Assembly (NCBI GenBank): GCA_964590575.1
Contig: CAZPWM010000060.1
Location: forward strand, 1 to 18,865
DNA: 18,865 bases
DNA from: an uncultured archaeon
Lineage (GTDB): Archaea; Asgardarchaeota; Thorarchaeia; Thorarchaeales; Thorarchaeaceae
Direction of reading: 5' to 3'
The notes under the pieces are model-generated. The model saw nothing but the letters and a program-made list of their open reading frames with translations, did not search any database and was not told the origin of the DNA. Of this stretch, positions 1-18,865 are shown in pieces (the stretch's first letter is position 1; the number at the start of each line of letters is the position of its first letter). The position numbers and the translations under genes were made by a program.

Positions 1-24
1 GAGAGCTACTACGTACCTTGCTCG

Positions 25-30
25 AAAAAA
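25..30 (-). terminator. Candidate oligo-T terminator
   Basis: A6 on + (T6 on -), 18 nt downstream of the stop of the 48..557 ORF; archaeal terminators are typically oligo-T. Confidence 0.4.
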
Positions 31-47
31 CGTCGGGCTTGTCATAA

Positions 48-557: not shown

Positions 558-599
558 CTACTACTCCTCCAAATTAAGTATCCAGATTGTACCCCTCAC

Positions 600-1424: not shown

Positions 1425-1578
1425 ACTACACCAACTCAATCACAGTCTGAAATACAGGACTTGTTCAGCTACCGACTAGATAAGGCAACCGAATCAAGAA
1501 TCAAGACACATCATAACGCTTAATTGTCTGTCCGCCAGACGAGCTAATGACAGCTCACACTGGAAGTGTTTCCATTTG

Positions 1579-1911
1579 GTGAACGAGGTAAATACTGAGC
1601 CAACAGGCAAGAAGGACATGCCAAAAACATCTTACTCTAAACCCACTATAGGGTCTACTGGTAAGACTGGTAGCTGGCGGACTTTTGATCCCAGAGTCAA
1701 CTATGATGAGTGTAACAAATGTCGCACTTGTTGGCTCCATTGCCCAGAGGCTGTTATTAGCATAGGCGAAGATGATTATCCTATTTGGGATTTCGACTAC
1801 TGCAAAGGCTGTGGAATCTGCGCAGAGGTTTGCCCGAAGAAGTGTATCGAGATGGTACGCACCACAGACTCAGTTGCAGATTCACTACGGGTAGGAGGTT
1901 CAGAGGGATGA
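1579..1911 (+). CDS. porD: 2-oxoacid:ferredoxin oxidoreductase delta subunit (2x[4Fe-4S])
   Basis: TGSWRTFDP signature, CNKCRTCWLHCP and DYCKGCGICAEVCP; start uncertain (TTG 1576, GTG 1579 or ATG 1618). Confidence 0.9.
   Translation: MNEVNTEPTGKKDMPKTSYSKPTIGSTGKTGSWRTFDPRVNYDECNKCRTCWLHCPEAVISIGEDDYPIWDFDYCKGCGICAEVCPKKCIEMVRTTDSVADSLRVGGSEG
1894..1899 (+). promoter_or_regulatory. Shine-Dalgarno site for the alpha subunit
   Basis: GGAGGT 8 nt upstream of ATG 1908. Confidence 0.75.
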
Positions 1912-3086: not shown

Positions 3087-3997
3087 ATGAAATGGTAACA
3101 ACAAAAGAGATTCCACTCAAAGAATATGTATTGAAGGGTAATGCGGCATGTGCTGGCTGTCAGGACATGGTAGCTCTCAGACATGCCCATAAAGCACTCG
3201 AGGGCGATGTCATTCAGGTTGTCCCTGCTTGTTGTACAAGTGTTGTTCAGTCACTATGGCCAAAGAGCGGTCTGGGTATTCCTGTTCTCAATACTGCATT
3301 TCCAGCTGCAGCTGCAACAGCATCTGGTGTGAAAGCAGCACTCAAAGCTAAGGGTAATGATCATACCATAGTCATGGTCTGGGCTGGGGATGGCGGTACC
3401 TTTGACATAGGTATCCAAGCATTGAGTGGAGCATTCGAACGAAGGACCGATTTTCTTTACATCTGTTACAACAACCAAGTCTACAGCAATACAGGTACTC
3501 AACGGTCTGGTGCAACACCACTGCATGCTCAGACGACAACAACTTGGTTTGGAAAGAAAGAACCAGAGAAAATGCTTGATTTCATTGTTGCTGCACATGA
3601 ACCAGTCTATCAATTCACAGCAAACACCGCTTATCCTCTAGATCTCTATGAAAAGTTCCAGAAAGCTCGTGAGTTTGAGGGTCCCAAATTCGGACATATC
3701 TTTCTTCCATGCCCTCAAGCATGGAACTATCCTGTGGAAAAGGGGGTGGAGATAGGAAAGCTTGCAGTGGAAACTGGATACTGGATTCAGTGGGAGCGTG
3801 TGGACGATGAGTTCACATTGGGCAAACACAGCAGGAGGTTCCAAGATCCTGAGAAGAGAAAACCAATCGATGAGTTTCTGAAGATGCAGGGTCGTTTCTC
3901 ACACCTTTATAGACCCAAACGTGATGACAAAAAGATCAAGGAGTTTGAGGATTTCATCCAGCACAGATGGGATATGCTCATGCGAACCTTCACCTGA
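3083..3997 (+). CDS. porB: Pyruvate/2-ketoisovalerate:ferredoxin oxidoreductase beta subunit (TPP-binding)
   Basis: ACAGC, PACC and LPCP cluster cysteines; GDGGTFDIG...YNNQVYSNTG TPP motif; GTGA overlap with the alpha stop (alternative ATG 3092). Confidence 0.93.
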   Translation: MNEMVTTKEIPLKEYVLKGNAACAGCQDMVALRHAHKALEGDVIQVVPACCTSVVQSLWPKSGLGIPVLNTAFPAAAATASGVKAALKAKGNDHTIVMVWAGDGGTFDIGIQALSGAFERRTDFLYICYNNQVYSNTGTQRSGATPLHAQTTTTWFGKKEPEKMLDFIVAAHEPVYQFTANTAYPLDLYEKFQKAREFEGPKFGHIFLPCPQAWNYPVEKGVEIGKLAVETGYWIQWERVDDEFTLGKHSRRFQDPEKRKPIDEFLKMQGRFSHLYRPKRDDKKIKEFEDFIQHRWDMLMRTFT

Positions 3998-4041
3998 GGA
4001 TAGCTGGCAACCTTCATTTCCAACTCAAACGACTCGCTCCC

Positions 4042-4052
4042 AAAAAAAGAAG
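4042..4052 (-). terminator. Candidate oligo-T terminator
   Basis: TCTTCTTTTTTT-type run on the minus strand just after the 4059 stop, in a convergent intergenic gap. Confidence 0.5.
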
Positions 4053-4058
4053 ATATAA

Positions 4059-5594
4059 TTAGTTTAGATTATTTTGAAACTGGAGTACTAGATACGTGAC
4101 GCCCCCAGCATAAGCAGATACGATTCTCTTGATACGATGCTCATCATCAAGATGGTCGATCTCACCTGCTGTGATGTCGGTCCGGGCGGATTCTTCTGCA
4201 ATAAATCTTGAAACCCATGGGATATCCATGACTGCTTCTCCCACATTCAATAATTGAAGTAATCTATAGGCAGTTTCAAAGCATAGAGTTTGTGTAAATC
4301 TCTCTGATTCTTCACCAAGAGACTCCCTGTGATTTTCCACAACTCCAACAATAGCATCGAATGCTTCATTCACTTTGTCGATCAGCTCGTCTGCCTGCAT
4401 ATCTTCGAGGTTCTTGTCCTCTGCTCTCTGTTTAAGTGATGAGAGCGCCACTCCAAATCGTCTTTCCGGAGTTATTTGGGGTTTCTCTCCTGTTCTAGCA
4501 CGATGACTGAGGATACTAAGTTCTACTGCTAGAGCTGCAGCTCTATCTGCAGAATCAGTAAGCCGCTGTGCAATTTCCTTTGCTTCTCCATTGAGTAAGT
4601 CAACAAAGAGAGATAACTCCCTATTCTTTCCTCTACCTTGGCGCACTCTCAATGTATCTGCGTAGTGGTCTGCAATCACTTGAATCAAATATGAGAAGAA
4701 ATCAACATCAATCCACATCCTTTTCTCTCCCTCTTGTTCAGATTTGAACAAGGAACAAGTACTCAATCGCGCTGCATTCTGCCTAAGCACTTCTAGAGCA
4801 GTGAATAGCTTACCATAGATACCCAAATTCCCTATGAGTGGCCAATCAAATGGTTTCCGAGACCCACCCCCAACTATCTGGTTCTTCAAGGTCGTTTTTG
4901 AATGCATTACAATAATGTACGAAGTTGTTTCCTCTATGAGCTTTTCTTCATTAAGAGTGAAAACAGCATCGAGGTCAAAGAGACATCCACTCGATTTCAT
5001 TAGAACTAAAGCAATCAACGATTTCAATCGTTGAGATGTCATCGAACTATCAATTGCATAACCCCTCCCAATTGGATTTGGGCGGAAAACAATATCTATT
5101 ATTCCTCGGTATGACATACTTACATTCATTTGTGATGCTAGATTTGAGCGTGACTCATCAGACGATATGAGGTTTTGAACAAAGATTTTGATATCAGTAG
5201 ATGCAAAATCCTCTGGTGCTGCGACCGGATCTATTACTACCTTCGGTATTACCCACAACCAGAGTAAGGATACAGCTTCATCCCTTGCAGCGCCTATCAC
5301 TTGTTGACCTGATTGGAACTCTTCTGCATCTAGACTGAATCCAACCCATCTTGGCACATCCATCAGGAACTTTAAGGTTTCATCATCATGGAAAGCTTGT
5401 GAAAGAATGTGTTTCTTGATTTCTCGATACATCTCCTCTGGATCTGATGAAGTTACTGAGAAACCTGCTAAACCAAGCTCTTCTCTTATCTCAAAAGATG
5501 TCTTTCTACTCCATTCCTCTATAGTTCTATAAAGAATTGTTGTGTGAAGATTTTCCACTACAGCTCTCGTAGTGTGCGTCAGGTCTGAGGTCAT
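4059..5594 (-). CDS. Hypothetical protein, probably largely alpha-helical and cytoplasmic
   Basis: 511-aa ORF with ATGA overlap to the upstream gene; no motif recognised. Confidence 0.85.
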   Translation of the reverse strand: MTSDLTHTTRAVVENLHTTILYRTIEEWSRKTSFEIREELGLAGFSVTSSDPEEMYREIKKHILSQAFHDDETLKFLMDVPRWVGFSLDAEEFQSGQQVIGAARDEAVSLLWLWVIPKVVIDPVAAPEDFASTDIKIFVQNLISSDESRSNLASQMNVSMSYRGIIDIVFRPNPIGRGYAIDSSMTSQRLKSLIALVLMKSSGCLFDLDAVFTLNEEKLIEETTSYIIVMHSKTTLKNQIVGGGSRKPFDWPLIGNLGIYGKLFTALEVLRQNAARLSTCSLFKSEQEGEKRMWIDVDFFSYLIQVIADHYADTLRVRQGRGKNRELSLFVDLLNGEAKEIAQRLTDSADRAAALAVELSILSHRARTGEKPQITPERRFGVALSSLKQRAEDKNLEDMQADELIDKVNEAFDAIVGVVENHRESLGEESERFTQTLCFETAYRLLQLLNVGEAVMDIPWVSRFIAEESARTDITAGEIDHLDDEHRIKRIVSAYAGGVTYLVLQFQNNLN

Positions 5595-6472
5595 TTTTCT
5601 CTCTCCTCAAACAACTTACTCATTACATCCTGACGTGAAATACTTCCCTGAAGCTCAGATGTGATGAAAGCACGCATATCGTTGATTGCTCCTTCAACAT
5701 TGATTTCTTCACCTTCATCTGCAAGCTTTGAGAATAGCAGGTTGCTGACCTCTTCTCCTAAATCAACCTCATCTGGAAAATGCATGCTAGAGTCTAATTC
5801 TTGTTCATCACTGTAAAGGACTTCGACAATGGTACCATAGGGATGTTTCTGGTTTCGTAAGTAGACTCGATTCCGTTTCGTTAATTCATAAAATTCGATG
5901 TCATCAAGCAACTTCTTGAGTTTCGATTGAAGGAATGAACTAGATACGTATGCTCTCTTTAGTTCACTCAACGGGATTCTCTTAGCTAGACTTGAAGCGA
6001 TTTGTATCTCGCGTTTGTAATTGAAGGTATCATAAGATAATCCCGAATCCTTCAAGAAGGATTCAGCCTCGAAGCTTCCAAGTGTATCATGTGTTATCTC
6101 AATGGGATTTATGCCTCCATTCTCGCCAAGCTTGATTCCTCCGCCCACATCAAAGGTTCTTACATCCTCTGGTCTAAAACTAGGTAATACGACTCCAGAA
6201 AGGGTTCTTTCAGTGACCTCAATTAGAACCGCATCAACCGATGTTTGTTGTGAGGAGCAATAGAACAAACCTGGGAGGAAAGCATAGAGATTCTCTTGAC
6301 TTGACATATTTTGTCGTTCAAAGTCAGTTCTAACTCGAGGCATAGAATATCCAATACCATTGAAATACCCTAAATCAGAAATACCAATTAACCACTCATC
6401 TTCAGGAAGTACACTTTCCTGAATCTCTACAAGCTGCAGGGATCTCTTGATTGGAATATACACTCGCTGCAC
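5591..6472 (-). CDS. Hypothetical protein
   Basis: 293-aa ORF, GTG start, coupled to 4059..5594; acidic C-terminal region. Confidence 0.82.
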   Translation of the reverse strand: MQRVYIPIKRSLQLVEIQESVLPEDEWLIGISDLGYFNGIGYSMPRVRTDFERQNMSSQENLYAFLPGLFYCSSQQTSVDAVLIEVTERTLSGVVLPSFRPEDVRTFDVGGGIKLGENGGINPIEITHDTLGSFEAESFLKDSGLSYDTFNYKREIQIASSLAKRIPLSELKRAYVSSSFLQSKLKKLLDDIEFYELTKRNRVYLRNQKHPYGTIVEVLYSDEQELDSSMHFPDEVDLGEEVSNLLFSKLADEGEEINVEGAINDMRAFITSELQGSISRQDVMSKLFEEREK

Positions 6473-6540
6473 CGGTCCCTATGCTTGCGACAGTAAACAT
6501 GCAATTTGAATCTTTGGCTGATTTCTTTGTCGAGCGCTAT

Positions 6541-8367
6541 TTAACTTTCATGACGAACCACAAAAACTCCTATTGCAATAATCGCAATGGCTCCAAGTAT
6601 AATAGCTGGTACTAGGTAAGATCCTACTCTAAATTCTGGAAAGTGCGGGTCAGTCTTTTCTAAGTACTCCCTCAAGTTTGAAACACCATCTTGATCAGGG
6701 TCCTCTGCGGAGTCATTAAGAGTAGGATTGAGATAGTTTTCCACCTCCCACAAGTCTGGCATTGAATCTGCGTCTGTGTCTTCTGAATTTGGGTCACAGT
6801 GGTTAAGAAATTCCTCTAGATTTGAGAGGCCATCAGAATCTTCATCCAATTGCGCATCATTTGCGTTAAGGGGATCTAATCCGTGCTGTATTTCCCATGA
6901 ATCAGACATCGAATCGGAATCTGTATCATTCGAAAACCTTGACGTACCAACGATCATCTCTTGACCGTCGTTGATGGTGTCTAAATCTGAATCCATTGAA
7001 AAGAATTCTTGATCGAACCAAAATTCTTGACTATCTGGCACGTCATTATCATCGATGTCAGTTTCGTATGTGATTTCCAGTTCGTATCCAATGCTTGTTT
7101 CCGACGGATTGAAAACACTCAAGGTGTAGATGCCTTGCATTGCCACAGATTGACTCAGAATGAGAGTGGATTCCCAAGGTGAAGGTACAGGATTTTCAAT
7201 CTGGGCTAGTTGCCAACCTAGTGTGTCGGTTAGAGTGATGCGAGTGCCTCCACCCCACCATCGACAAGAAACATTGATTGTTGTAGGAGTCGTAATGACA
7301 ATCGCGTATGTATTTTCTCGACCTTGTTGTAGTATGAATTCGTCTACAACGACTCTAGGCTCTTGATATGCACGTGCCAACGTAAACGCAATACTGGCAC
7401 CAATTGCCTTCACGGCTTCTATAGCAACAGTATAATTGTAAAGTGGATTATTCCAAACATCGGAAGGCGAATGGTATGCAGTGTCTATAGTAAAACCAGT
7501 TTCAGTTGCTAAAAGTGAGGGATACCCCTCCGCGATGAATGATGCATGGTCGGACGAATATCCTCCAGCCAAATCGTTTAATTCAATAGGCTTTATCATA
7601 TGGAAACCATAGTTCTTACTCATGGCTCTAGTAAGGTCTGCCCAGTACAAACCGTCTTGATAAGTTCCAGTCTGATATCCCATCCAGAGTTTGCTATCAC
7701 TCAGAGCATAAGGATGTGGCACTAGTAGCATGTCAATATTGTAGTAGAGTAAGATATCGACTCCCCTATCCGATAAAATTCCAGCAACTTCTCTACTACC
7801 TCGTAAACCAATCTCTTCAGCATTCCATGCTCCAAAGTAGATGTCTATTGGCCATTCGTACCCACTAAGAACTCGTGCAAGTTCCAAAGCAGTAGCAATT
7901 CCAGTTGCGTCATCATTAGCACCTGGTGCATCGGGGACAGAATCGAAATGACCTCCCACCAGAAACGCAGGACCGTCAACAGGTAAATACCCTTGGAGTC
8001 GTCCAAGAACGGAATTATAATCGCCTAGAATCTCAACCTCAATTCTTCCATTGGAAACCTCTACAAGTTTGTCTGCAATCCAATCCCTTGCTACAATATT
8101 ATTTGATTCCAAATCTGCAGGATTTACATATTCTCTTGAACCATTTTCTGTGAGTTCGATGATAAAGTTTCGAAAAGAACTTAGGGACACTCTATTGAAA
8201 ACTTCGTTTGAGTAATCTACGCCATAGATTCTTTCTATTTTAGCTGCAAGTATGGTTTCATCAATTGGCTTGATTTGATTAGAATGATCATCATGTGCAG
8301 TCGTTGTACCAAATGGAGTCAGGACTATTAGCGTACAAATGACGACGAATATGGAATACTTCTTCAT
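6541..8367 (-). CDS. Exported M28 family metallopeptidase with beta-sandwich domain, Asp-rich Ca-binding repeats and C-terminal membrane anchor
   Basis: Signal peptide MKKYSIFVVICTLIVL; complete site GGHFDS, GANDDATG, NAEEIGLRGS, NIDM, SDH, YHSPSD; ATG 8367 has GAGGT upstream (GTG 8388 is the alternative). Confidence 0.92.
   Translation of the reverse strand: MKKYSIFVVICTLIVLTPFGTTTAHDDHSNQIKPIDETILAAKIERIYGVDYSNEVFNRVSLSSFRNFIIELTENGSREYVNPADLESNNIVARDWIADKLVEVSNGRIEVEILGDYNSVLGRLQGYLPVDGPAFLVGGHFDSVPDAPGANDDATGIATALELARVLSGYEWPIDIYFGAWNAEEIGLRGSREVAGILSDRGVDILLYYNIDMLLVPHPYALSDSKLWMGYQTGTYQDGLYWADLTRAMSKNYGFHMIKPIELNDLAGGYSSDHASFIAEGYPSLLATETGFTIDTAYHSPSDVWNNPLYNYTVAIEAVKAIGASIAFTLARAYQEPRVVVDEFILQQGRENTYAIVITTPTTINVSCRWWGGGTRITLTDTLGWQLAQIENPVPSPWESTLILSQSVAMQGIYTLSVFNPSETSIGYELEITYETDIDDNDVPDSQEFWFDQEFFSMDSDLDTINDGQEMIVGTSRFSNDTDSDSMSDSWEIQHGLDPLNANDAQLDEDSDGLSNLEEFLNHCDPNSEDTDADSMPDLWEVENYLNPTLNDSAEDPDQDGVSNLREYLEKTDPHFPEFRVGSYLVPAIILGAIAIIAIGVFVVRHES
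6650..7060 (-). repeat. Protein-level TSP3-like Asp-rich repeats (D-x-D-x-D-x-x-x-D/N-x-x-E...L-D/N-P)
   Basis: DIDDNDVPD, DSDLDTIND, DTDSDSMSD, DEDSDGLSN, DTDADSMPD, DPDQDGVSN; boundaries approximate. Confidence 0.85.
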
Positions 8368-8380
8368 TTCAGGACCTCTG

Positions 8381-10231
8381 TTATCCACCTAGATTACGAG
8401 TTCGCTGAACATAAAGAAGTGCACCGATTAGAGCAATTGACAATAATGGTACTGAAATCCAAGTCACCGGGATTTCCATTGCTTCAGGTACTTGAGGGTT
8501 CGTATGGTTAATATACTCCTGAAGATTGGTTATGCCATCCCCATCCGCATCAAGCATTGAGTCGTCAACTAATGGGTCCAGTCCGTTTGCTACTTCCCAA
8601 TAATCGTCCATAGCGTCTGAGTCGGAATCAGTAGAGAATAAGTTGAGTCCTCTAGAGTATTCTTGAGCATTACTAAGGTGGTCACCATCTGCATCCTCAT
8701 TTGCATCTGCGGGATTCAGAGGATCTAGTCCATTATCCACCTCGAATTTATCGGGCATTGTATCTCCATCACTGTCTGCACTCATCAAATCTGTGCCGAG
8801 GAAAATCTCTTGAGCATCACTAAGTTCATCCCCATCTTGGTCTGACTCGAAGAGACCCGCGTCAATCCAGAATTCATGAGAATCCCCGACATCATTGCCA
8901 TCTATATCTGCGTTAAAGGAGAGCTTGAGTTCATAGCCAACTGGAAGCACATGGTCTTTGAATACCACAAGAGTGTACAATCCCTTTGTGGTTAATGATG
9001 GACTGAACACATTAGTGGGTTCCCAGGCTGATGAGTGGTTGAAAATTCCGGATGACACAAGTCCGCCTGAGGGGTTGAGTAAAAAGAATGATGATGAACC
9101 TCCAAACCATCTAGCTGTGAAATTCAGTGTTGTTGGGGTACTTATTGGAATGTAAAACGTTCTAGTCGTGGGGATGGAGAGAGTGAAGTTGTAGTTCAAT
9201 ATTGTCCGTTCACCATATGTTCTACCCATGATGTGTGCCATACTAGCACCAATTACTGCAGTTGTTTCACGACCAAGATTGTAGTTGAACTGATAGTAGT
9301 CCCATTTATCATTCCCATTGTGATATGACATGTCACTAAGATAGCCCGACTCAAAAGCACACATGGAATGAAAGCCCCTGTTGTAAAATGCGTAGTGATC
9401 AGATAATTGCCAAGCCACGAATTCAATTGATGGAATGGGGACTATCAAGTCATCCCCAATATTGTTACTCATCATGCGAGCAAGTTCCGCCCAATATTGT
9501 CCGAGGTGATATCCCGATTGTCCCCCCATCTCATATCCCATCTGAATTCGCTCGTCTGAAGGCGCACTTGTATCTTGAACCAGAATAGTGTCGACATTAT
9601 AGAGCATCAAGAGCTCAATTCCTCTATTGTTGAATTCAATAGCAACCTCTGGACTCCCTTGCATAAACCGATAGCCGAATAGACCATTGAATGCAATGAA
9701 GTATATGTCAAGTGGCCATTCATACTGTGACATGACCTTTGCAAGTTCTAAAACTGCTGCGATACCGCTCCCATCACAATTCGCACCGTCTGAGAAATCT
9801 GGTGAGTCATAGTGTGCTGAAACAGCAAATGCTGGATTATCCCCTGGGAGGTATCCAGGCAGCTTTCCAACTATGTTTTTGTAGTTCCCAACTTCTTCAA
9901 CTTCGATTCTACCTTTTGAGAGTGTCACAAGGCTCTCTTCAATATATTCTCGGGCATTTCTGTTTCCTTCCAAATTAATCTCAGCCGCGTTCATTATGAA
10001 TCTGGTTCCAATTTCAGAAATCTCCCTCACGAAGTTTCTGTAGTCTGTGGTTTTGACACTGGAATAGATGATTTCTGACAGGTCTGTTCCATACACCCTC
10101 GGAGTAGATTCAGACACCACCTGCGCTGGAATGGCACCAATTGTAGAATTGAGGGTTTCATCATTCAAGATTGGGACTGGTGTAGCACAAAGTAATATGA
10201 TCAAGAACCCTAGAAACAAATACCGTTCCAT
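8381..10231 (-). CDS. M28 peptidase paralogue with remodelled, probably non-proteolytic active site; same domain architecture as its neighbour
   Basis: Signal peptide; SAHYDS retained; GANCDGSG (Asp to Cys); FNGLFG in place of NAEE; NVDT, SDH and YHNGND retained; Asp-rich repeats and C-terminal TM helix. Confidence 0.88.
   Translation of the reverse strand: MERYLFLGFLIILLCATPVPILNDETLNSTIGAIPAQVVSESTPRVYGTDLSEIIYSSVKTTDYRNFVREISEIGTRFIMNAAEINLEGNRNAREYIEESLVTLSKGRIEVEEVGNYKNIVGKLPGYLPGDNPAFAVSAHYDSPDFSDGANCDGSGIAAVLELAKVMSQYEWPLDIYFIAFNGLFGYRFMQGSPEVAIEFNNRGIELLMLYNVDTILVQDTSAPSDERIQMGYEMGGQSGYHLGQYWAELARMMSNNIGDDLIVPIPSIEFVAWQLSDHYAFYNRGFHSMCAFESGYLSDMSYHNGNDKWDYYQFNYNLGRETTAVIGASMAHIMGRTYGERTILNYNFTLSIPTTRTFYIPISTPTTLNFTARWFGGSSSFFLLNPSGGLVSSGIFNHSSAWEPTNVFSPSLTTKGLYTLVVFKDHVLPVGYELKLSFNADIDGNDVGDSHEFWIDAGLFESDQDGDELSDAQEIFLGTDLMSADSDGDTMPDKFEVDNGLDPLNPADANEDADGDHLSNAQEYSRGLNLFSTDSDSDAMDDYWEVANGLDPLVDDSMLDADGDGITNLQEYINHTNPQVPEAMEIPVTWISVPLLSIALIGALLYVQRTRNLGG
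8500..8910 (-). repeat. Protein-level TSP3-like Asp-rich repeats
   Basis: DIDGNDVGD, DQDGDELSD, DSDGDTMPD, DADGDHLSN, DSDSDAMDD, DADGDGITN; boundaries approximate. Confidence 0.85.
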
Positions 10232-10242
10232 GAAGCCAGGTC

Positions 10243-10262
10243 TTATTGATTCTCCTCAATAA
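10243..10262. promoter_or_regulatory. Perfect inverted repeat TTATTGA-N6-TCAATAA, candidate operator
   Basis: 7-bp arms in the divergent intergenic region, 11 nt upstream of the 10231 ATG. Confidence 0.45.
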
Positions 10263-10316
10263 TGTTGCCCTACACGCACTAGAGTTAGATATTTCAGGGT
10301 TTTTGATACTGAATAA

Positions 10317-11618
10317 GTGTCTAAAATCAAGGTTGAAAAATCAATGCCGCTAGTAGATTTTCCCACAATCGTCAAAATTAAGGACCCTATTCATGGATAC
10401 GTTTCATTAACAGCTCTGGAAAAAGAGATTATAGATTTGCGACTTAGTCAAAGACTCCGTTATATACAAGCCCCCGCAGGACTCTCTCTGGTCTATCCTG
10501 GTGCTGTCACATCCTTGATGGGTCGGACATTTGGATTCATGCATATGACTGAGGTTTTTCTCGAATATCTTGGCGGGGACATGGATGAGGTACTCAAGGG
10601 TCGACTAGCATCCTTATTACTCATGTTGACTAACGGTCCATGGGCGAATATATCTGAAGAATATCTTTCTGTGCGTGGCATTGATAGACCAAAGATTACT
10701 CGGATAATCGTCGAAGAATCCAAAGTGGGAGAGCTTGTAGAAAAACATGGGTTCACAATAAATGAGGTGGTTGAACTCATTCAGAAAGGAATCCCCGTCA
10801 AGGGAATTCGTCTTGATCTTATTCACTGCCCAATCAATCCCGAATTGATTGATGATCTCGAGCGAGACTCGTATTTTGCCGGAGTTGAATATGCTCAGCT
10901 AGAGTTTAGGCGACTCTTTACAGCAACTAGGATTGCGAAGAACAAGATTGCAGTCGAGCGTAGTTCTCTGTTCACACTCGAGTCTTACCTATCTGCTGCT
11001 GCAAATATGTTTGAAGCTGTCTATTTCCATAAAACGGTACGAGCTGCAGAGCTCATGTTACTCAGAGTGCTCGATGAAGCAGGGTCTCAACTGTTCTGTC
11101 TACCGACAGAGGATTCCGAATCATTTCTTAAATGTGATGACCTGACTTTTCTGTACCGTTTACTCCACGTTTCTCCTGATGATACTGAAGAGCTGCGTAC
11201 TGCGAATCGTATCTATGATGATTTCAGTAAAAGGAATCTTATCAAATTGACAAGTTCGAGATCTATCTCAGACCCAGCATTCTTATCAAGACTTTCTACC
11301 GCTGATGGTTTGTATGAACTGGAGAAGGAGATAGCAGATGATGCAGGAATTGACCCCTCCCTTGTCTATGTCGACTTTCCTGATAGAGCCTCTGTGACAT
11401 TCTATCCAGGACGTTTTAGTTTTGAAGATTTGGTTCTCTTTGAGCGAGGTTCAACTGGTTATGAGTTTTGGCACGCAACTGATGTAAGTCTAATAGCTAG
11501 GAGTTTCTCCAGAATCTTGAAACCAGTGCGTGTTTACACAACTCGAGGTTATAGACCTAAACTGAAGAAGTCTGCAGATAGAGTCCTAGAAAGTGCTGAA
11601 CCGATTGAAAACAAATAG
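10317..11618 (+). CDS. SAMHD1/dNTP triphosphohydrolase-like HD-superfamily protein lacking the HD motif (pseudoenzyme)
   Basis: IKDPIHGY, QRLRYI, LVYPGA, RDSYFAGV and MFEAVYFHKTVRAAE match the family; LLLMLTNGPWAN replaces LLHDIGHGPFSH; start GTG 10317 or ATG 10344. Confidence 0.88.
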   Translation: MSKIKVEKSMPLVDFPTIVKIKDPIHGYVSLTALEKEIIDLRLSQRLRYIQAPAGLSLVYPGAVTSLMGRTFGFMHMTEVFLEYLGGDMDEVLKGRLASLLLMLTNGPWANISEEYLSVRGIDRPKITRIIVEESKVGELVEKHGFTINEVVELIQKGIPVKGIRLDLIHCPINPELIDDLERDSYFAGVEYAQLEFRRLFTATRIAKNKIAVERSSLFTLESYLSAAANMFEAVYFHKTVRAAELMLLRVLDEAGSQLFCLPTEDSESFLKCDDLTFLYRLLHVSPDDTEELRTANRIYDDFSKRNLIKLTSSRSISDPAFLSRLSTADGLYELEKEIADDAGIDPSLVYVDFPDRASVTFYPGRFSFEDLVLFERGSTGYEFWHATDVSLIARSFSRILKPVRVYTTRGYRPKLKKSADRVLESAEPIENK

Positions 11619-11680
11619 TGTGTGACATTCCGCAATATATAATATCTACAACTCTATCCGTTATATTACTGGTGAGGAAA

Positions 11681-12181
11681 ATGAGTGACAAACCTATTGC
11701 AATAATTGAACAAGTGATATCAGCGCCCAATTTCTTGATGATAGTAATTGGAGCTATAATCTGGATATTAGCTTCCTTTATACCGTTCATTGGATTTTTA
11801 TTCAGTACCGTTGGTTTCGGACTTACTACGTTTGCGACTATAGAAGCTGCTATGACGAAACCTGTGACCTCAGCACTACCTGGTTTTTTGTTGGGTGGGA
11901 TAATACGAGTCATAGGTTATCTTCTTATCTTCATTCCGTTTGCTGGCGCCATAATTAGTCCCTTTGTTATTATTCCTGGAAATGTTCTGATTCTTTTCTT
12001 TGGAGCTTCTCTAGCTCTTCAGAGGGCTGACATACCTATCGTAAAGGACCTCGAAGATTTCATCGACTCAAGGAAAAAGAAAGAAGTTCCGAAGAAAAGC
12101 GAAGAAGCCCCTAAGAAAAGCGAAGAAGTTGTAGATGTCGAAGAAGAAACTACGGACGAATCAGATACAACTGAACAATAG
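11681..12181 (+). CDS. Hypothetical membrane protein (about 4 hydrophobic segments) with charged, acidic tail
   Basis: ATG 11681 preceded by GGTGAGG; hydrophobic segments with repeated FIPF; E/K/D-rich C-terminus. Confidence 0.82.
   Translation: MSDKPIAIIEQVISAPNFLMIVIGAIIWILASFIPFIGFLFSTVGFGLTTFATIEAAMTKPVTSALPGFLLGGIIRVIGYLLIFIPFAGAIISPFVIIPGNVLILFFGASLALQRADIPIVKDLEDFIDSRKKKEVPKKSEEAPKKSEEVVDVEEETTDESDTTEQ
12092..12128 (+). repeat. 21-nt-period tandem duplication encoding PKKSEE twice
   Basis: AAGAAAAGCGAAGAAG exactly at 12092-12107 and 12113-12128. Confidence 0.9.
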
Positions 12182-12293
12182 AAGGTTGACTATTACTAAG
12201 CCTAAGGAAGGGGCTCACCTGAAATTCCCTTAATAGTGTATCATGAAAATCAGATGTACCTAACAACTCCCTATCTCTCAGTGGTGCATTGTA

Positions 12294-14570
12294 GTGTTCT
12301 CATGTACGAGATGCGGTGACTCCCTATTCATTCGCAGTGTTGATATGAAGGATAAAATCCTGACAATGGAGGTGCAGTGCCTTAGAGGACACAAAAGTGT
12401 TCGCCGCCTTTCTGAACACCAGGCAACGGAGATGGCTCCAGAAGTATTCAAACGACTCTATACCTGCACAGATTGCGGTTCTAATATGACACTTATTGAA
12501 GAACGAGGTGCTGGTACAAAAATAGAAGGTGTTTTTCTCTGTCCAATACACGGACCGCAGAAACGAGAGTTCCCATGTTCTTTTCATGCAACTGTTGAAC
12601 TAGCTGGCGCTGATGTTGACAGTCCTCGTTCAATCATTGATTCTTATAGATGCCCCCAATGTGGCCTTGTATATGCTGTCACTTCAATTGATCAACGACA
12701 AGGAGTTCTAGAGGTTGAAACACGATGCGCTAATGGTCATAAAGCTACTAGATACTTACCCCGTAGTCTTGATACTACATTGCTCAAGAATATTCTTCAA
12801 AGAGTTGTACATTGTGATCGGTGTGGCTTACCAGGGCATATAACTGATACAGAAGATCGGGGAAATACTACACGACTAACAATAGCCTGTCCTATTCATG
12901 GAACAACGAAAAAAGACATTCTTTCCGCACAAGTGGATCTTCTTCGAGAGGCTATATCTGAAATTCCTGAGGATGCAGTTGTAAAGTCGTCATTGACAGC
13001 TCATGATTGTCGCCGTTCCCTTGCAATCAGGAGCATTGAGGAGGACAAGCAAGGCTACAAACTGAAATGTGTTTGTCCGGGTACAAAAGTCCTATCTGAC
13101 AGAATTTTACCTCTCACATGGAATGAACCGGTCATTAAACGAATAACATCTGCATTACTAACTTGCGATGAGTGTGGACAGCTCACTCATATTCTTGACA
13201 AAAAGAAGCTCAAGAAAAAAGTTGGTTTCAGAATCGTCTGCCCAGTACATGGTGTGATGACTCGAGAAGCACCGCCTGATGTCTTCAAGCTAGTAGATGA
13301 ACATCAAGCTTCGATTGATCGCATGCCCTCGATTGTGAGGAGTTTGAGCTGTGAAAAATGCAGCATGCCAATGAACGTTCGTGATGTTGAGGAACGTCGT
13401 GGTCTGATTGAGTTTGATGTTGATTGTAGAAATGGACATAGGAGCAAGCGTCTATTCGTTCCAGGTCTTGATCAAAAAACCCTCATAGGTCTCTACAAAA
13501 AATTGTATCAATGCCCAGAATGCTACGAATCACTTGACCTGGTCTATATTGAACCTCGGGGTCGTGAGGACAGGGTTGTACTATTGTGCTCACTTCACGG
13601 GAAAATCGTTCTAGACATCCCGCCAGACCATGCAGAGGCGATGCAAAGCGCCTATAATGAGATGCAAGCAGACAAGATCAAACCTCCAGTTGAAGTACTT
13701 GAACACGAAACCTCAGAAATTCTCGAAGCTTCAGAAGAATCATCTTCAGGGAGTGACACTGGAGTTATTGTTCTCCGAGGTTGCGAGATTGTTGGGGGTA
13801 AGTTCGATTTCAAAGTCAAAATAAAGAATGAAAGTGGTTATGTGATTACCAACGCCACTGTTTCTATCGTTGCATATCCCCAAGACTGCATGGAACTAGC
13901 AGGAGAAAATGTCAAGACAATCTCGCGAATCGAAGTTGATGGGTTTAGGAGCCCTCAATTCACATTCTACCCGACAAAAGATTGTGTTCAAGGTAAGGTG
14001 GTTGCAACTGTATCATACATTGATTTCTTAGATCAGCTGCACACTGTGAGTGTTGAACCATATCTGATACGATCAGTGTGTGACTTGCTTCAACCCCTAA
14101 AGAAGACCTCAGAAGCATTCGAGCTTGTGTTGACCGAGCTTGAGAAGACACAGCAAGAACAGACTCTAGACTGGAACGCTCAAGTACTCTTCACTAAGGC
14201 TGAGAAGATTCTACCTGCAAAGAACTTCCACATAGTTGATAGTGAGGAAAAGATTGTACGTGGAGAATTCATTGGCACTATCAGAGGTTATGCAGAAGGA
14301 AAGTACACCCAGAAAAAAGTTGCAGTTGTCCTACTAATCACCGGTCCTGAGAATGGTCGTCATTCATGTGTGAGAGTTGAAGCATTAGGTGAGGATGTAG
14401 CTATGCTCCCAACCACAATCGATGAGTTAGCTGATACAATGGATTCATGGATATGCCTTCGATGTGGTGCACCATTAGAACCTGAACAGGTAGAAGAGAT
14501 GGGCCGGAGATTGCCAATTCGTTGCAAATACTGTGTTCACACTTTGACCATAGCTCTCTATCTACAATAG
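12294..14570 (+). CDS. Protein with eight Cys3His metal-ribbon repeats, putative adaptin-appendage-like (beta-sandwich plus platform) domain and C-terminal C4 zinc ribbon
   Basis: 758 aa; CxxC-x21-CxxGH alternating with CxxC-x21-C(P/S)xHG; acidic linker; beta-rich domain from about aa 490; CLRC...CKYC at the end; GGTG before the GTG start. Coding status is solid; the domain call is inference. Confidence 0.85.
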   Translation: MFSCTRCGDSLFIRSVDMKDKILTMEVQCLRGHKSVRRLSEHQATEMAPEVFKRLYTCTDCGSNMTLIEERGAGTKIEGVFLCPIHGPQKREFPCSFHATVELAGADVDSPRSIIDSYRCPQCGLVYAVTSIDQRQGVLEVETRCANGHKATRYLPRSLDTTLLKNILQRVVHCDRCGLPGHITDTEDRGNTTRLTIACPIHGTTKKDILSAQVDLLREAISEIPEDAVVKSSLTAHDCRRSLAIRSIEEDKQGYKLKCVCPGTKVLSDRILPLTWNEPVIKRITSALLTCDECGQLTHILDKKKLKKKVGFRIVCPVHGVMTREAPPDVFKLVDEHQASIDRMPSIVRSLSCEKCSMPMNVRDVEERRGLIEFDVDCRNGHRSKRLFVPGLDQKTLIGLYKKLYQCPECYESLDLVYIEPRGREDRVVLLCSLHGKIVLDIPPDHAEAMQSAYNEMQADKIKPPVEVLEHETSEILEASEESSSGSDTGVIVLRGCEIVGGKFDFKVKIKNESGYVITNATVSIVAYPQDCMELAGENVKTISRIEVDGFRSPQFTFYPTKDCVQGKVVATVSYIDFLDQLHTVSVEPYLIRSVCDLLQPLKKTSEAFELVLTELEKTQQEQTLDWNAQVLFTKAEKILPAKNFHIVDSEEKIVRGEFIGTIRGYAEGKYTQKKVAVVLLITGPENGRHSCVRVEALGEDVAMLPTTIDELADTMDSWICLRCGAPLEPEQVEEMGRRLPIRCKYCVHTLTIALYLQ

Positions 14571-14647
14571 AGCACTAGTATGCACACTTACGTAATATCT
14601 TTTAGGAAGTAGAGTGCATCTGACATAGTTTCATTTCCGAACGCCTA

Positions 14648-16510
14648 GTGGAGGAGAGAACGATTTTCACATGTAAGAAATGTAAAGAGCCATTCTTTGT
14701 TCAGTCTGGAGAACTGAAAGGTAACACACTTCGTGTTTACTGCCAATGTCTGAAAGGTCACAAGGGTAAGAGGGATATTTCAAGATACCAAGCTGACAGT
14801 ATGGCTCATGAAGTGTTTCAGGGCATTTTCACTTGTGTGGAATGTGGATTGACGATGTCCTTAATGAACACTGATGTGGGTCGCCAAAAGGCTGAGTATA
14901 TCTTCATTTGTCCAATACATGGACCTCAAAGAAGAGAGATTCCTGCTTTCTACCATACTTCTGTCACAGGAATGCAGGCGAATATGAATTTCTCAAAATC
15001 AATTCTTGACTCTCTGAGTTGTCCTAAGTGTGGGGAGGTTTTTGTTGCTACTGAGATTGCTGAGAAGAAAGGACTCCTTGAGATCAAAGCACGGTGTTCT
15101 AATGGACACAAAGAAATGCGGTTTGTTCCAAAGATAGCTGACGAGTCTGTTCTCAAAACAATGGTCAAGCGACTCATCCACTGCGATGAATGTGGCCTTC
15201 CATGCAAAGTACTAGGTTCGCAACCCAAAGGGAACAAAGCCCAGTTAGAAATTGCGTGTCCCGCACATGGAAAAATGAAGAAAGAACTCCCAGCTGAATA
15301 TGCATGGATGGTGGAATCGATTGTTGAAGCCATGTCTGAGGGTAGCATTGTAAAATCGATGTTGAACTGTCGTGATTGTGGGAAGTCATTATCAATCAAA
15401 GCAGTCGAGCTTGACAAGATGAAATACAAACTCAAGTGCAGTTGTGCGAATGGCCATAGTGTTGAACTCTCACAACCATCTGATTTGGATGAGGAAGCCA
15501 TTGATGCTATTGTCGGTGGTGTTTTGAAATGCAATGACTGTGATTTGGTGACTGACATCGTGGAAACAAAGGTCAGTGGTAACAATGTGGAACTGAAGCT
15601 ACTCTGTCCTGTTCATGGTGATTTCAAGAAAGGAATAAGTATGGGTGTTTACAAACACGTTGAGGAACGAGACAAACAAGTAGACAGGATGCCATCGACT
15701 GAAGAGAGTCTCAAGTGTGATAAATGTACATCTCCGATGACAATTCGCGGGACCAAAGTTCACGACAACATCGTTGAACTAAAGATGGACTGCATGAATG
15801 GTCATGGTCATGAACGTTATTTGCATGTTGGAGCCGACGATCCTGTGATTGAACGATTCTATCATCAATTGTTCGAATGTCACAAATGTCACAGTCCATT
15901 GACTCTGACAACCATTGGTGAGAAGGATGATAAGTCCGAAGCTTTCCTCATCTGCGAAAACCATGGTGAGAGCAAAGTTGAGATTCCAACAGCGCATGCA
16001 AAATTAGCTCGAGATGCATACCTCTCAACTATGTCAATGTCCGATCTAGAGAAGCTTCTGGAAACCCGTTTGCAGACAGAAAGAGCTGCAGAATACCAAA
16101 TTGAACCAGATGCTGATATCCAAGAAATGGTAGATATTGTGAACGATATCATTGAGCAGCAGAGTGTGAAGTTCATTGGAGAGAAGAGTAGAACCAAGAA
16201 TGGCGAGGAATCATGGTATTATGGAAAGGCTCTAGCCGGTACCGAATATATTGTGATTGGATCAGTTTCAAAAGAAAACCTGACAATGCGCATCTCAGTT
16301 GCTAGTGATGACGAGAATAAGATGAACATGCTCCTATCAGAGATGCGTGACAATCTACGAGAGGTCTTACTCAAACTTCAAGATAAGACTGGAGACACAG
16401 CTCCAAAGAAAATTCAATGTGCTCAATGCGGTGCAGCGCTACCCAAACGAGCTCTTCCTGGTGAAACTGTGATTTGTGATCACTGTGGAACTCCGTTGCA
16501 TTGGACTTAG
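14648..16510 (+). CDS. Paralogue with eight Cys3His metal-ribbon repeats, putative platform-like alpha/beta domain and C-terminal C4 zinc ribbon
   Basis: 620 aa; eight intact repeats colinear with the upstream gene; CAQC...CDHC at the end. Confidence 0.85.
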   Translation: MEERTIFTCKKCKEPFFVQSGELKGNTLRVYCQCLKGHKGKRDISRYQADSMAHEVFQGIFTCVECGLTMSLMNTDVGRQKAEYIFICPIHGPQRREIPAFYHTSVTGMQANMNFSKSILDSLSCPKCGEVFVATEIAEKKGLLEIKARCSNGHKEMRFVPKIADESVLKTMVKRLIHCDECGLPCKVLGSQPKGNKAQLEIACPAHGKMKKELPAEYAWMVESIVEAMSEGSIVKSMLNCRDCGKSLSIKAVELDKMKYKLKCSCANGHSVELSQPSDLDEEAIDAIVGGVLKCNDCDLVTDIVETKVSGNNVELKLLCPVHGDFKKGISMGVYKHVEERDKQVDRMPSTEESLKCDKCTSPMTIRGTKVHDNIVELKMDCMNGHGHERYLHVGADDPVIERFYHQLFECHKCHSPLTLTTIGEKDDKSEAFLICENHGESKVEIPTAHAKLARDAYLSTMSMSDLEKLLETRLQTERAAEYQIEPDADIQEMVDIVNDIIEQQSVKFIGEKSRTKNGEESWYYGKALAGTEYIVIGSVSKENLTMRISVASDDENKMNMLLSEMRDNLREVLLKLQDKTGDTAPKKIQCAQCGAALPKRALPGETVICDHCGTPLHWT

Positions 16511-16573
16511 TTTCAATAATGACACAAGGAAAGCCATATCGAATGTGCAAATCAAAAGGGTATCATTAGATGC

Positions 16574-17137
16574 CTATTCACCAGTCCACTTTGCAGCTGA
16601 ATCTTGGAAAACTCCCATATGTGCAAGTACTCTCTCGATCACTGAATCCACAAGTTCCTCAATGGTCTTTGGTTTTGCCCAAAATGCTGGACTAGCAGGG
16701 ATCACAATGGCACCAGCTTCTGTTACTGTAGCCATATTCCTAATTTGAATTAGATTGAGGGGCGACTCTCTAGGTACAAGAATGAGCTTGCGCCTCTCTT
16801 TCAAACTGCAATCCGAAGCGCGAGCAATGAGATTGTCTGCATATCCATGAGCAATTCCTGCAAGAGTCTTCATTGAGCATGGTATGACAACCATTGAATC
16901 GAGCGGAAAAGTCCCACTGGCTGGTCCTGCTGCGAGATCATCTTCACTATAGAAGAAGTCCGCCTCTTTGCAGAGGGTTTCTGAGTCAATCCCGGTTTCA
17001 TACTTGAGGGTCTCTTCACCCCACTTGCTGACAATCAAGTGAACTTCATGACCATCTGACTTCAGAGCTCGTAACAATCTGACTCCATATATTGCACCGC
17101 TAGCACCTGTTATACAGACAAGGACTCGCTTCTTCAT
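16574..17137 (-). CDS. ubiX: Flavin prenyltransferase UbiX
   Basis: ITGASGAIYG, ASG, PCSMKTLAGIA, NLIARA, LKERRKLILVPRESPL and PAFW motifs; ATG 17137 preceded by GGTGA. Confidence 0.96.
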   Translation of the reverse strand: MKKRVLVCITGASGAIYGVRLLRALKSDGHEVHLIVSKWGEETLKYETGIDSETLCKEADFFYSEDDLAAGPASGTFPLDSMVVIPCSMKTLAGIAHGYADNLIARASDCSLKERRKLILVPRESPLNLIQIRNMATVTEAGAIVIPASPAFWAKPKTIEELVDSVIERVLAHMGVFQDSAAKWTGE

Positions 17138-17179
17138 ATTAGTCACCAGTAGACTAGAATCTCTGAACTAGAATTTGTG

Positions 17180-17185
17180 TATATA
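17180..17185 (-). promoter_or_regulatory. Candidate TATA box for ubiX
   Basis: TATATA about 45 nt upstream of the ubiX ATG in the intergenic gap. Confidence 0.4.
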
Positions 17186-17215
17186 CCTCTATCGAAATGA
17201 TGAATGCAATGATTC

Positions 17216-18865
17216 TCAAAACAGAAAAGCTAGGAGTATGTATATGAGAATAGATCCGCCTCCTGCCCTGATTCCTACCTTCTTGGCAATACCAGCTGCC
17301 TCAGCTATATCTTGTGTGAGAATGTCAAATCCCTTCTCTCCGAAGGTCCTAAGGCCGGTTGCCTTGCCAAATCCTAGTCCAACCTTGACCGGTTGAACTC
17401 GCTCTCGCGCTTTCACTGACGCTGCTACAATATGCTCAAGGGTTTCGAAAGGTTTGTTTCGACCAACTGGTGGATATCCTCTACTGGAGAGCGAGATTGC
17501 ATTCACGACGTGGGTGTCTGTCGTGATAATTTCAGCATCGTCAAATCCCTGTGCCTTGAGCAGACTCTGAGCCTGTTCTCTAAATCCTGGTTCCACGTTA
17601 TTGCCATCAATAGAGATTAAGGCCATCTCACGCTCGCCAAGATTGAGGACAATAGCGATTACGCCGCCCGGCCCCATTCCCTCTGACTGAGTGATATCGC
17701 TTGGTATAATCTGGTGCATTCCCAACTGTACTTTCGTTCTGTCGTTATTGATAGTTGAGAACACAGCTCCTGAAACCGTGCCGACAAATTCACTCGCCTC
17801 TGGATCTCCTTGGTTCACAGAAATCGCACTATCATCAATACAATTATGCGCGTCAACCACTGCTACGCCTCCAATCTGAGGCAATCTTTCACGAATCATG
17901 TTAGCAACATCATATCCAACATCCAATGAAATGTCGTCTGTAAATTCAGGTGCACTTGTGCTAATTGTGAGTACATTTTCACCAACAAAAAGACTCCAAA
18001 CCTTGAACTTCCCTCCATCAGACCAATGTGGTCCAGAAATGAATTCATGAACCTCTGTTTCCTCGATTAGTCTGTCTATCTCTGATAGAATAATGGGATA
18101 GTCGTCTTTTGTGGTCAGATTCTGCTGATGTGTACAAGTGCCATGCATGATAAAAGATGGGATTCCATGAGTGTCATGAATGTGTTTGATAATAACAGAG
18201 GGTAGTTCGCTACTTCCAATGTCTCTGAAGGGTCCTGGATGAACATACTGAATTACTCCGCAAGCAACAGGTCCTTCATCATCTCGAAATATGATAATCT
18301 CAACAGGAATATCTTGTACAGTTGCAATCTTTGTCAGAATCTTTTCCATGGGTTCAGGATTACTCGCTAAATAATCATGACCAAATGCTCTGAGGAGTTG
18401 TGGTCCGTTGATTCCTAGGTCCCTTTCAAAAGGCACACTAACGGCTCGATAGATGTAATGGACTACCAATGAAGCAACAATCAGTGAGATACTAACGGGG
18501 ATGTACCACAAAGGCGGAAGTTGTGGAAGAGCAACGTTTGTTGGAGCAATAATTAGCTCGACAATAATCCAAAGTAATGGAGGCATAAGCGATGCAATGG
18601 TGTTCCTTACAGGATGATGATCACTCAATCCATTCACAAGGAATGCAAAAGCCATGTATGCGACTGAAACTCCTAATATTGAGAATCTAATCTCAAATGC
18701 AGCAGATGATGTGACTGCATCTACGATGCCACCAATTACACTCAGGGCAATCCAAAATATCAATCCAAATTGGACCAATCCTGCAGTCCTTCTCCCATCT
18801 AGGGGAGAGTCCTCTTCTGTCGTAATCGCATATAGTAAACCTGAACCGATGAACACAGGTGCTCC
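17216..18865 (-). CDS. DUF2070-like archaeal membrane protein (5' end outside the window)
   Basis: N-terminal TM helices followed by VHPGPF..IGSS.LP, HG...H..N, DAHN, DGNN and TTDTH, then a C-terminal TM; frame stays open to the window edge. Confidence 0.85.
   Translation of the reverse strand, partial: GAPVFIGSGLLYAITTEEDSPLDGRRTAGLVQFGLIFWIALSVIGGIVDAVTSSAAFEIRFSILGVSVAYMAFAFLVNGLSDHHPVRNTIASLMPPLLWIIVELIIAPTNVALPQLPPLWYIPVSISLIVASLVVHYIYRAVSVPFERDLGINGPQLLRAFGHDYLASNPEPMEKILTKIATVQDIPVEIIIFRDDEGPVACGVIQYVHPGPFRDIGSSELPSVIIKHIHDTHGIPSFIMHGTCTHQQNLTTKDDYPIILSEIDRLIEETEVHEFISGPHWSDGGKFKVWSLFVGENVLTISTSAPEFTDDISLDVGYDVANMIRERLPQIGGVAVVDAHNCIDDSAISVNQGDPEASEFVGTVSGAVFSTINNDRTKVQLGMHQIIPSDITQSEGMGPGGVIAIVLNLGEREMALISIDGNNVEPGFREQAQSLLKAQGFDDAEIITTDTHVVNAISLSSRGYPPVGRNKPFETLEHIVAASVKARERVQPVKVGLGFGKATGLRTFGEKGFDILTQDIAEAAGIAKKVGIRAGGGSILIYILLAFLF

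Follow-up and report, generated by a model that had tools for sequence, protein, structure and literature searches.

What does an archaeal genome keep when it keeps the gene of an enzyme that has lost its catalytic site? The question is raised by a contig of 18,865 nucleotides from an uncultured Asgard archaeon of the family Thorarchaeaceae (CAZPWM010000060.1 of assembly GCA_964590575.1, positions 1 to 18,865; the whole of this stretch is referred to below as the window), which carries on its forward strand a gene related to the deoxynucleoside triphosphate (dNTP) triphosphohydrolases (dNTPases) SAMHD1 and EF1143. The frame at 10317-11618 is open for 433 codons and a stop, and its product is without the HD motif that typifies these enzymes. 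SAMHD1-family enzymes control dNTP pools and contribute to antiviral defence from bacteria to humans, and their allosteric activation between subunits has been much studied. Asgard archaea are the closest known relatives of eukaryotes. The host assembly comprises 3.4 Mb, is 91% complete, and holds the HD-less gene on contig C60. We conclude that the gene encodes a maintained pseudoenzyme and is not decaying, because its product is well folded in prediction and strongly selected, its catalytic centre is lost, and its inter-subunit nucleotide pocket is kept.

Residues are numbered here in the 433-aa frame that begins at 10317. Across residues 15-92 the corresponding SAMHD1 number is obtained by adding 97, since phmmer aligned query residues 15-92 with residues 112-189 of 7ujn_A. 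Because this match sets the offset, the assignments of D137, Q142, R145, Q149, R164 and H167 made in a preliminary description of the locus are correct. Later residues were mapped with hmmalign through a 408-position profile aligned to human SAMHD1 8gb1_A (chain number plus 110). Two sets were compared, namely 116 orthologues (search matches and one representative, each of at least 400 aa) and 131 active homologues (HD-bearing, at least 350 aa, with P0130 left out). The full H/H/D/D set of metal ligands is carried by 135 homologues in an alignment of 150 sequences.

In the window protein all four metal ligands are replaced (Table 1). The substitutions listed in the preliminary description are each present at the codons it gave, i.e., R70 at 10524, L102-M103 at 10620-10625 and E176 at 10842, and the further changes Q149 to A, R164 to L, H210 and H215 to N, and Y315 to D are also found. 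To these can be added L150 to P, H233 to R, K312 to L, and R366 to A. E176 sits inside the clade-specific motif INPELIDDLxRDSYFA. The complete set of metal ligands occurs in none of the 116 orthologues, whereas each ligand is found in 130-131 of the 131 active homologues; a single ligand survives only at the H167 position, in 2 of the 116. Orthologues with an intact HD motif, which had been named beforehand as evidence against a maintained non-catalytic role, were absent from the 116 examined.

The loss extends to the residues that hold the substrate. According to passages of PMC7045340, R164, K312, and R366 bind the triphosphate in SAMHD1; these are L, L, and A in the window protein, the catalytic histidines H210, H215, and H233 are N, N, and R, and the orthologues show likewise replaced residues. 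R164 is present in 130 of 131 active homologues versus Leu in 112 of 116 orthologues, and H215 in all 131 versus Asn in all 116. At the K312 position the active homologues have mostly Arg or Lys and all 116 orthologues have Leu, while R366 (117/131 active) is Ala or Ser in 111 of 116 (A 91, S 20). The H233 position is Arg or Pro in the HD-less clade, and the replacement residues P53, N111, and L177 are fixed in 116 of 116. Positions with a conservation of 80% or more in the 131 active homologues were sorted by role: the orthologues have lost 12 of the 15 catalytic positions and 10 of the 30 others, but none of the 6 allosteric ones (Fisher p = 0.0014 for catalytic losses versus the rest, the unit being the alignment position). 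Judged from these alignments, the pattern is not one of chance, and the loss is centred on the catalytic pocket without being strictly confined to it. The earlier statement that loss was confined to catalytic residues therefore holds for the contrast between catalytic and allosteric positions, but has to be relaxed for the ten changed positions elsewhere. The catalytic metal and the substrate triphosphate are predicted to be no longer bound, and the sequence argues against dNTP triphosphohydrolase activity.

Hydrophobic residues (L67, L102, M103, L177, and P53) probably occupy the former metal site, where Arg-carboxylate pairs are also probably formed by R70 and R124 with E176, D179, D180, and D184; both features are predictions. 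In 117 sequences, Arg at position 102 (10620-10622) and a basic residue at position 124 (10686-10688) were never found together (both, 0; R102 only, 28; R/K124 only, 68; neither, 21). This exclusivity may reflect a charge that was relocated within the former site, although the swap is possibly one event, because all 28 sequences with R102 fall in a single band of 66-69% identity.

A rival proposal is that the remodelled pocket catalyses another reaction, or binds a non-phosphorylated, nucleoside-like ligand. A candidate site can be drawn from the acidic helix face (E176, D179, D180, and D184) together with R70, N106, N111, and the kept residues Y236 and D184. The replacement residues are strongly conserved, and a count over eight pocket positions gave five acidic and two basic residues in 75 of 117 sequences. 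Moreover, all 116 orthologues have retained the equivalents of D319 and Y374, which touch the substrate sugar in SAMHD1 according to passages of PMC7045340. Both residues are, however, invariant throughout the family and are perhaps structural. The histidines of the site are all gone, and most of the old catalytic positions are variable among the deeper members of the clade (70, R/H/G; 102, L/R/S/I; 103, M/T/S/A; 176, E/Q/R/K; 180, D/N/R/S), which is unlike a catalytic constellation. We therefore regard new chemistry as very improbable.

The fold has been retained. Pfam analysis of the HD-less protein returned HD_assoc_2 alone (E value 5.4e-15); the HD family (PF01966) was absent even at E<=1, and a search of NCBIfam gave no family. 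The best sequence match in the PDB is 2hek (E value 3.9e-24), followed by 2q14 and then 2o6i (EF1143). Human SAMHD1 is matched by the single sequence over residues 15-92 (E value about 1e-6), and by the family profile over nearly its full length (E value 1e-70, profile positions 3-399). The AlphaFold2 (AF2) model, built from a 109-row alignment, has a mean predicted local distance difference test score (pLDDT) of 93.5 and a predicted template modelling score (pTM) of 0.91. In a Foldseek search it matched fungal SAMHD1 (9mr6), EF1143 (3irh), 2hek, and human SAMHD1 over the whole length, with template modelling (TM) scores of 0.74-0.78 and E values of about 1e-17. The matches also include 7lu5 and 7ltt, which we take to be the laboratory mutant H206R/D207N of SAMHD1. 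This mutant has been used as a dead form that is still able to bind nucleotides. By fold and homology the protein belongs to the SAMHD1/EF1143 lineage; it is not to be filed as a dNTPase, because the defining catalytic features fail. The public annotation of its orthologues as 'HD superfamily phosphohydrolase', given to genes without an HD motif, should be read with this warning in mind.

In SAMHD1 the allosteric pocket is formed by D137, Q142, and R145 of one monomer with R451 and K455 of a second, bridged by K523 (passages of PMC7045340). The corresponding residues of the window protein are D40, Q45, and R48, conserved in 113, 116, and 116 of 116 orthologues, respectively, and R306, K310, and R377 (Table 1); the equivalent positions in the dGTP site of EF1143 follow the definitions given in passages of PMC3190883. 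The preliminary description had reported the motifs DPIHG, IID..QRLR (D40, Q45, and R48), and VYFHK as intact, and this is the case. R306 and K310 were missing from its list and are intact as well. The K523 position, by comparison, is variable in the active homologues (K 25, E 21, D 17, R 14, and N 14 of 131). Equivalents of SAMHD1 R333, H376, and K377 are retained in 114-116 of 116 orthologues. Altogether, 24 positions are common to the HD-less clade and the active homologues, including the interface motifs DPIHG, QRLR, and RNLIK. Retention was judged throughout by residue identity.

A pocket of this kind need not hold a free nucleotide. Single-stranded nucleic acid has been reported to place a guanine base in allosteric site 1 of SAMHD1, and the guanine pocket and basic interface of the HD-less protein could hold G-containing single-stranded DNA or RNA independently of dNTP hydrolysis. 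The SAMHD1-DNA complexes 8d94 and 8d9j are among the Foldseek matches, and the guanine-recognition residues are conserved in 113-116 of 116 orthologues. On the other hand, the equivalents of R451, K455, and K523 are fixed more strictly than in the active homologues, which fits a free triphosphate better, and no nucleic-acid-related neighbour genes were found in the window. A role as a nucleic-acid binder is thus considered improbable.

Selection on the gene was assessed in 30 orthologous loci, in all of which the frame is intact. The median ratio of nonsynonymous to synonymous substitution rates (dN/dS; method of Nei and Gojobori) is 0.051 for those pairs, 27 of 435, that have dS <2. For the same genome pairs, dN/dS is 0.025-0.084 for the HD-less gene versus 0.022-0.061 for an intact paralogue of 432 aa encoded in the same genomes (nine genomes, with both genes yielding a value in 15 of their 36 pairs). 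The dN of the HD-less gene is typically about 2.3-fold that of the intact paralogue, with a range of 1.7 to 5.7-fold. It evolves somewhat faster, yet under clear constraint, and is not decaying; the purifying selection that the preliminary description proposed to look for is at a level comparable to that of the intact paralogue.

Orthologues of at least 50% identity were found only in the window's own family, in 72 of its 85 genomes besides the host, when 400 genomes of the phylum were searched. One genome (G333) has two copies of the HD-less gene, on contigs C69 and C98. A more divergent and more degenerate sister HD-less form occurs in G311 (locus L044:2219-3460), the only genome of the neighbouring family, and in P0130. 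This lineage has SE in place of the HD dyad and N for D311, it retains H167, and Pfam again returns HD_assoc_2 only. In a quick IQ-TREE analysis of 73 rows the two HD-less lineages are monophyletic (Shimodaira-Hasegawa-like approximate likelihood ratio test, SH-aLRT, 99), and the stem of their clade is long (0.58 + 0.65 substitutions per site) and nested in neither of the clades of the intact paralogues. Because the HD-less lineages of both families are monophyletic, the inactivation is older than the split of the two families.

Several observations weigh against the view that the gene is maintained for its nucleotide pocket. With this query, 13 of the 85 family genomes gave an intact paralogue only and no orthologue, and three of the 13 are 92-93% complete; the gene is therefore possibly dispensable. 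In two genomes, G334 (C4:160515-161772) and G360 (C16:304-1691), the match falls into two neighbouring frames, owing to a frameshift or other damage, a gap, or an assembly error. These two observations are also what can be said for a decaying, functionless copy, an explanation that is effectively refuted by the intact frame in 30 of 30 loci, by a dN/dS of about 0.05 across lineages with saturated synonymous sites, by a lineage that predates the split of two families, and by a fold predicted with high confidence. As for the pocket itself, R451, K455, H376, and K377 are replaced by S, P, N, and P in the sister lineage, and since that lineage persists, an HD-less copy can survive without the pocket. 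The equivalents of K116, N119, and K354 are lost in the HD-less clade, as are those of R352 and N358, although all five are variable in active prokaryotic homologues too. Since the whole family shares the pocket motifs, their retention may serve folding or the interface and not a ligand. Finally, the clade has 62 fixed positions that are rare in active homologues; many lie in the C-terminal lobe, and they hint at a function outside the SAMHD1 model.

With these points in the balance, a maintained non-catalytic role, as put forward in the preliminary description, is supported by the orthologues, the purifying selection, and the presence of intact paralogues in the genome. The most economical form of that role would be as follows. 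The protein would oligomerise like its active relatives, through the canonical dimer interface, and a (d)GTP-type nucleotide would be bound between subunits by the D..QRLR residues of one chain and by R306 and K310 of the other, with R377 as an additional contact. Metal and substrate triphosphate would remain unbound, and there would be no hydrolysis. As output, the protein would regulate or sense in response to nucleotides; the simplest case is a homo-oligomer, and a subunit of mixed tetramers is the alternative. To the proposal that the pseudoenzyme oligomerises, binds a (d)GTP-type nucleotide at the interface, and acts as a non-catalytic regulator we would give an even chance.

The alternative output depends on suitable partners. 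The preliminary description suggested looking for an active HD paralogue, and the host genome has two, of 432 aa (contig C75) and 507 aa (contig C56, L006:1309-2832), which share 30% and 27% identity, respectively, with the HD-less protein. Both contain Pfam HD (E values 5.9e-12 and 7.5e-08) and HD_assoc_2, with a full catalytic set. The 432-aa type is widespread across the phylum, and the 507-aa type is restricted to the family (78 of 85 genomes; elsewhere a single match of 32% identity was found). In the 507-aa type (L006 and loci L046-L058), D137 is replaced by S in 14 of 14, Q142 by L in 12 of 14, and D330 by P in 14 of 14 sequences. By sequence, the family thus has three versions: a complete enzyme, one that is competent for catalysis but has lost the guanine-recognition residues, and the HD-less copy, which has them. 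Such a trio is suggestive of divided labour.

In certain trypanosome enzymes, dead 'prozyme' subunits act as partners of active ones. By analogy, the HD-less protein could be a regulatory subunit of mixed oligomers with the 432-aa or the 507-aa paralogue, in which it would supply or alter interface nucleotide sites and dilute the active sites. Both intact paralogues are encoded in the same genome. Each of the 85 family genomes was matched at least once. In those without the HD-less copy the best match was at about 1e-46 to 1e-51, in the score range of the C75 type, with match rows per paralogue listed for part of the 85 genomes. The 507-aa type has the same family restriction as the HD-less gene, and it looks to be fit for catalysis only, where the HD-less copy looks to be fit for regulation only. 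A heterodimer model of the HD-less protein with the 432-aa paralogue reached a score of 0.71, while the best of three controls reached 0.00. Among solved complexes 116 of 157 attained this mark, compared with 2 of 215 mismatched pairs; the counts are rough, because the alignments were our own. The runs agreed in at least 97% of contacts, with a pLDDT of at least 87 for the partner, and in the model the two chains meet at the canonical dimer interface, pocket residues included. The co-assembly modelling that had been suggested earlier accordingly passes its controls with the C75 paralogue, but the pass possibly reflects mere likeness, because the homo-oligomers of SAMHD1 and EF1143 are solved, and such a model cannot tell hetero- from homo-assembly.

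Genomic evidence is less favourable to mixed oligomers. The genes are unlinked: each has its own contig in the host assembly, and a long distance separates them in G320 and G368, whose genomes are single contigs. The HD-less gene and the 507-aa type show no clear association of presence in the 85 genomes, which are incomplete and closely related (both, 67; HD-less gene only, 5, including G349, which is 99% complete; 507-aa type only, 11; neither, 2), and their presence is separable. Neither intact paralogue is the sister of the HD-less clade in the tree. We consider a regulatory subunit of mixed oligomers possible but doubtful. A narrower version, in which regulation and catalysis are split and the HD-less subunit is a prozyme-like nucleotide sensor in mixed tetramers with the 507-aa paralogue, is judged unlikely. 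We know of no such arrangement in any SAMHD1-family enzyme. Passages of PMC7045340 place K116, D137, Q142, and R145 of SAMHD1 all on one chain; since they share a chain, simple complementation of the two proteins would not rebuild one complete pocket, which also counts against mixed oligomers in general. The homo-oligomeric regulator is the simplest form of the pseudoenzyme reading.

The translation start of the gene was examined in the orthologues. The preliminary description gave a frame of 433 aa without stops or frameshifts; this frame is indeed open, but the start is likelier to be ATG 10344 (M10), with a protein of 424 aa. An opening [M/L]P.D[FLY][PS] is found at this position in 29 of 29 fetched orthologue frames, with Met first in 27 and Leu, perhaps from an alternative start codon, in two (L007 and L013). 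The usual length of the orthologues is 424 aa, and 9 listed orthologue matches that reach upstream of this ATG run through stop codons. For these three reasons ATG 10344 is the most likely start on sequence grounds. Direct reading of the sequence also places AGGT about 10 nt 5' of the ATG.

Table 1. Coordinates in the window of the HD-less gene, its diagnostic residues, and neighbouring features (residues numbered in the 433-aa frame).
Feature	Position	Strand	Remark
HD-less SAMHD1/EF1143-type paralogue, coding sequence	10344..11618	+	424 aa and stop; ATG 10344 likeliest start
Nine-codon stretch from GTG 10317	10317..10343	+	In the 433-aa frame; probably untranslated
D40...Q45-R46-L47-R48, guanine-recognising half of pocket	10434..10460	+	SAMHD1 D137, Q142, R145; EF1143 N36, Q41, R44
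R70, replacing metal ligand H167	10524..10526	+	R in 111/116 orthologues; H in 130/131 active homologues
L102-M103, replacing HD dyad H206-D207	10620..10625	+	Orthologues L 80/R 28 and M 104 of 116; active homologues H and D, 131/131
E176, replacing metal ligand D311	10842..10844	+	E in 111/116 orthologues; D in 131/131 active homologues
R306...K310 (RNLIK), trans-subunit triphosphate-binding half of pocket	11232..11246	+	SAMHD1 R451, K455; each 116/116 orthologues
R377 at SAMHD1 K523 position (allosteric gamma-phosphate contact)	11445..11447	+	R in 116/116 orthologues
Intergenic region shared with divergent M28 peptidase gene	10232..10343		Presumed promoter region
Tandem M28-family peptidase paralogues, 615 and 616 aa	6541-8388, 8381-10231	-	Overlap of 8 bases
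Predicted membrane protein, 166 aa, Lys/Glu-rich charged tail	11681..12181	+	Directly downstream in 25/29 other loci (tblastn)
Paralogous zinc-ribbon-array proteins, 758 and 620 aa	12294-14570, 14648-16510	+	Repeated zinc-ribbon modules

The surroundings of the gene are well conserved. In 28 of 29 other loci it likewise stands divergent to an M28 peptidase gene, and the gene of the 758-aa zinc-ribbon protein lies downstream in nearly all 30. The 166-aa membrane protein, which gave no match in Pfam or PADLOC, is possibly encoded on the same transcript as the HD-less protein. The second peptidase (8381-10231) has a weak match to the TSP3 repeat. In the zinc-ribbon arrays, CxxC pairs stand alternately about 54 and about 62 residues apart, which makes a repeat of about 116 residues, and CxxC pairs are also found at the C-terminus. 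Farther upstream are two overlapping genes, 4059-5594 (-) and 5591-6472 (-), whose products of 511 and 293 aa had no Pfam or PADLOC match, and, at 1576-3997 (+), a ferredoxin gene with two genes of 2-oxoacid:ferredoxin oxidoreductase subunits. The sister locus in G311 likewise adjoins genes of pyruvate:ferredoxin oxidoreductase. As far as can be judged from their predicted products, the neighbours do not appear to suggest a function. The reading as a defence island is unsupported, as PADLOC was empty for the HD-less protein and its neighbours save for a match of 0.0088 on the 758-aa protein. The anti-phage dGTPase model of PADLOC (PDLC02374) had no match to the HD-less protein at E<=0.01, and gave weak partial matches to the intact paralogues (E values 5.4e-07 and 2e-05).

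Three contigs of the metatranscriptomic run X1 (17% of sampled words) match the window exactly, at 1848-2055, 10335-10485, and 10486-10636. The last two, of 151 nt each, together cover 10335-10636 of the HD-less gene and give a weak indication that it is transcribed, carry-over of DNA being a possible source; the contigs are too few for calls on transcription, operon structure, or the 5' end.

No natural dead homologue of SAMHD1 or of another dNTPase was found described in the full-text literature searched, a coverage outside of which subscription journals lie. The main-text passages of PMC13519002 and PMC12042053 mention archaeal homologues and no inactive ones among them. The HD-less protein would represent a natural separation-of-function variant, with only the regulatory pocket and the interface, and could serve as a tool to probe binding and assembly without catalysis. 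If it is regulatory, it may add a new layer to dNTP metabolism in Asgard archaea.

Among characterized proteins, the closest are EF1143 of Enterococcus faecalis (2o6i, 3irh, and 4lrl) and O67745 of Aquifex aeolicus (2hek), both of which are tetrameric prokaryotic HD dNTP triphosphohydrolases. They are the best full-length matches in sequence and fold, and the HD-less protein is, like them, two-lobed, with an HD lobe and HD_assoc_2. According to passages of PMC3190883, EF1143 has a metal site of H66, H110, D111, and D183, along with R63 and a His129-Glu122 dyad, and an interface dGTP site to which Q41 and R44 belong. In the HD-less clade Q41 and R44 have conserved equivalents, and the basic pair R326/K330, known from the same passages, also has equivalents, about one helical turn off in the profile alignment. 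In contrast, the equivalents of the metal ligands and of R63 are all replaced in the HD-less protein. The position of the conserved catalytic histidine H233 of SAMHD1, replaced as well, presumably corresponds to EF1143 His-129.

The model of the HD-less protein superposes on the core of human SAMHD1 (7ujn, 7a5y, and 4bzb) with TM scores of 0.75-0.78, and the SAM domain of SAMHD1 is missing from it. Compared with SAMHD1, the residues of allosteric site 1 (D137, Q142, R145, R451, and K455) and of site 2 (R333, H376, and K377) are conserved in the clade of the window protein, and most conserved positions of the catalytic pocket (12 of 15) have been changed naturally. One of these natural changes parallels the H206R substitution of the laboratory mutant, with Arg at the H206 position in 28 of the 116 orthologues.

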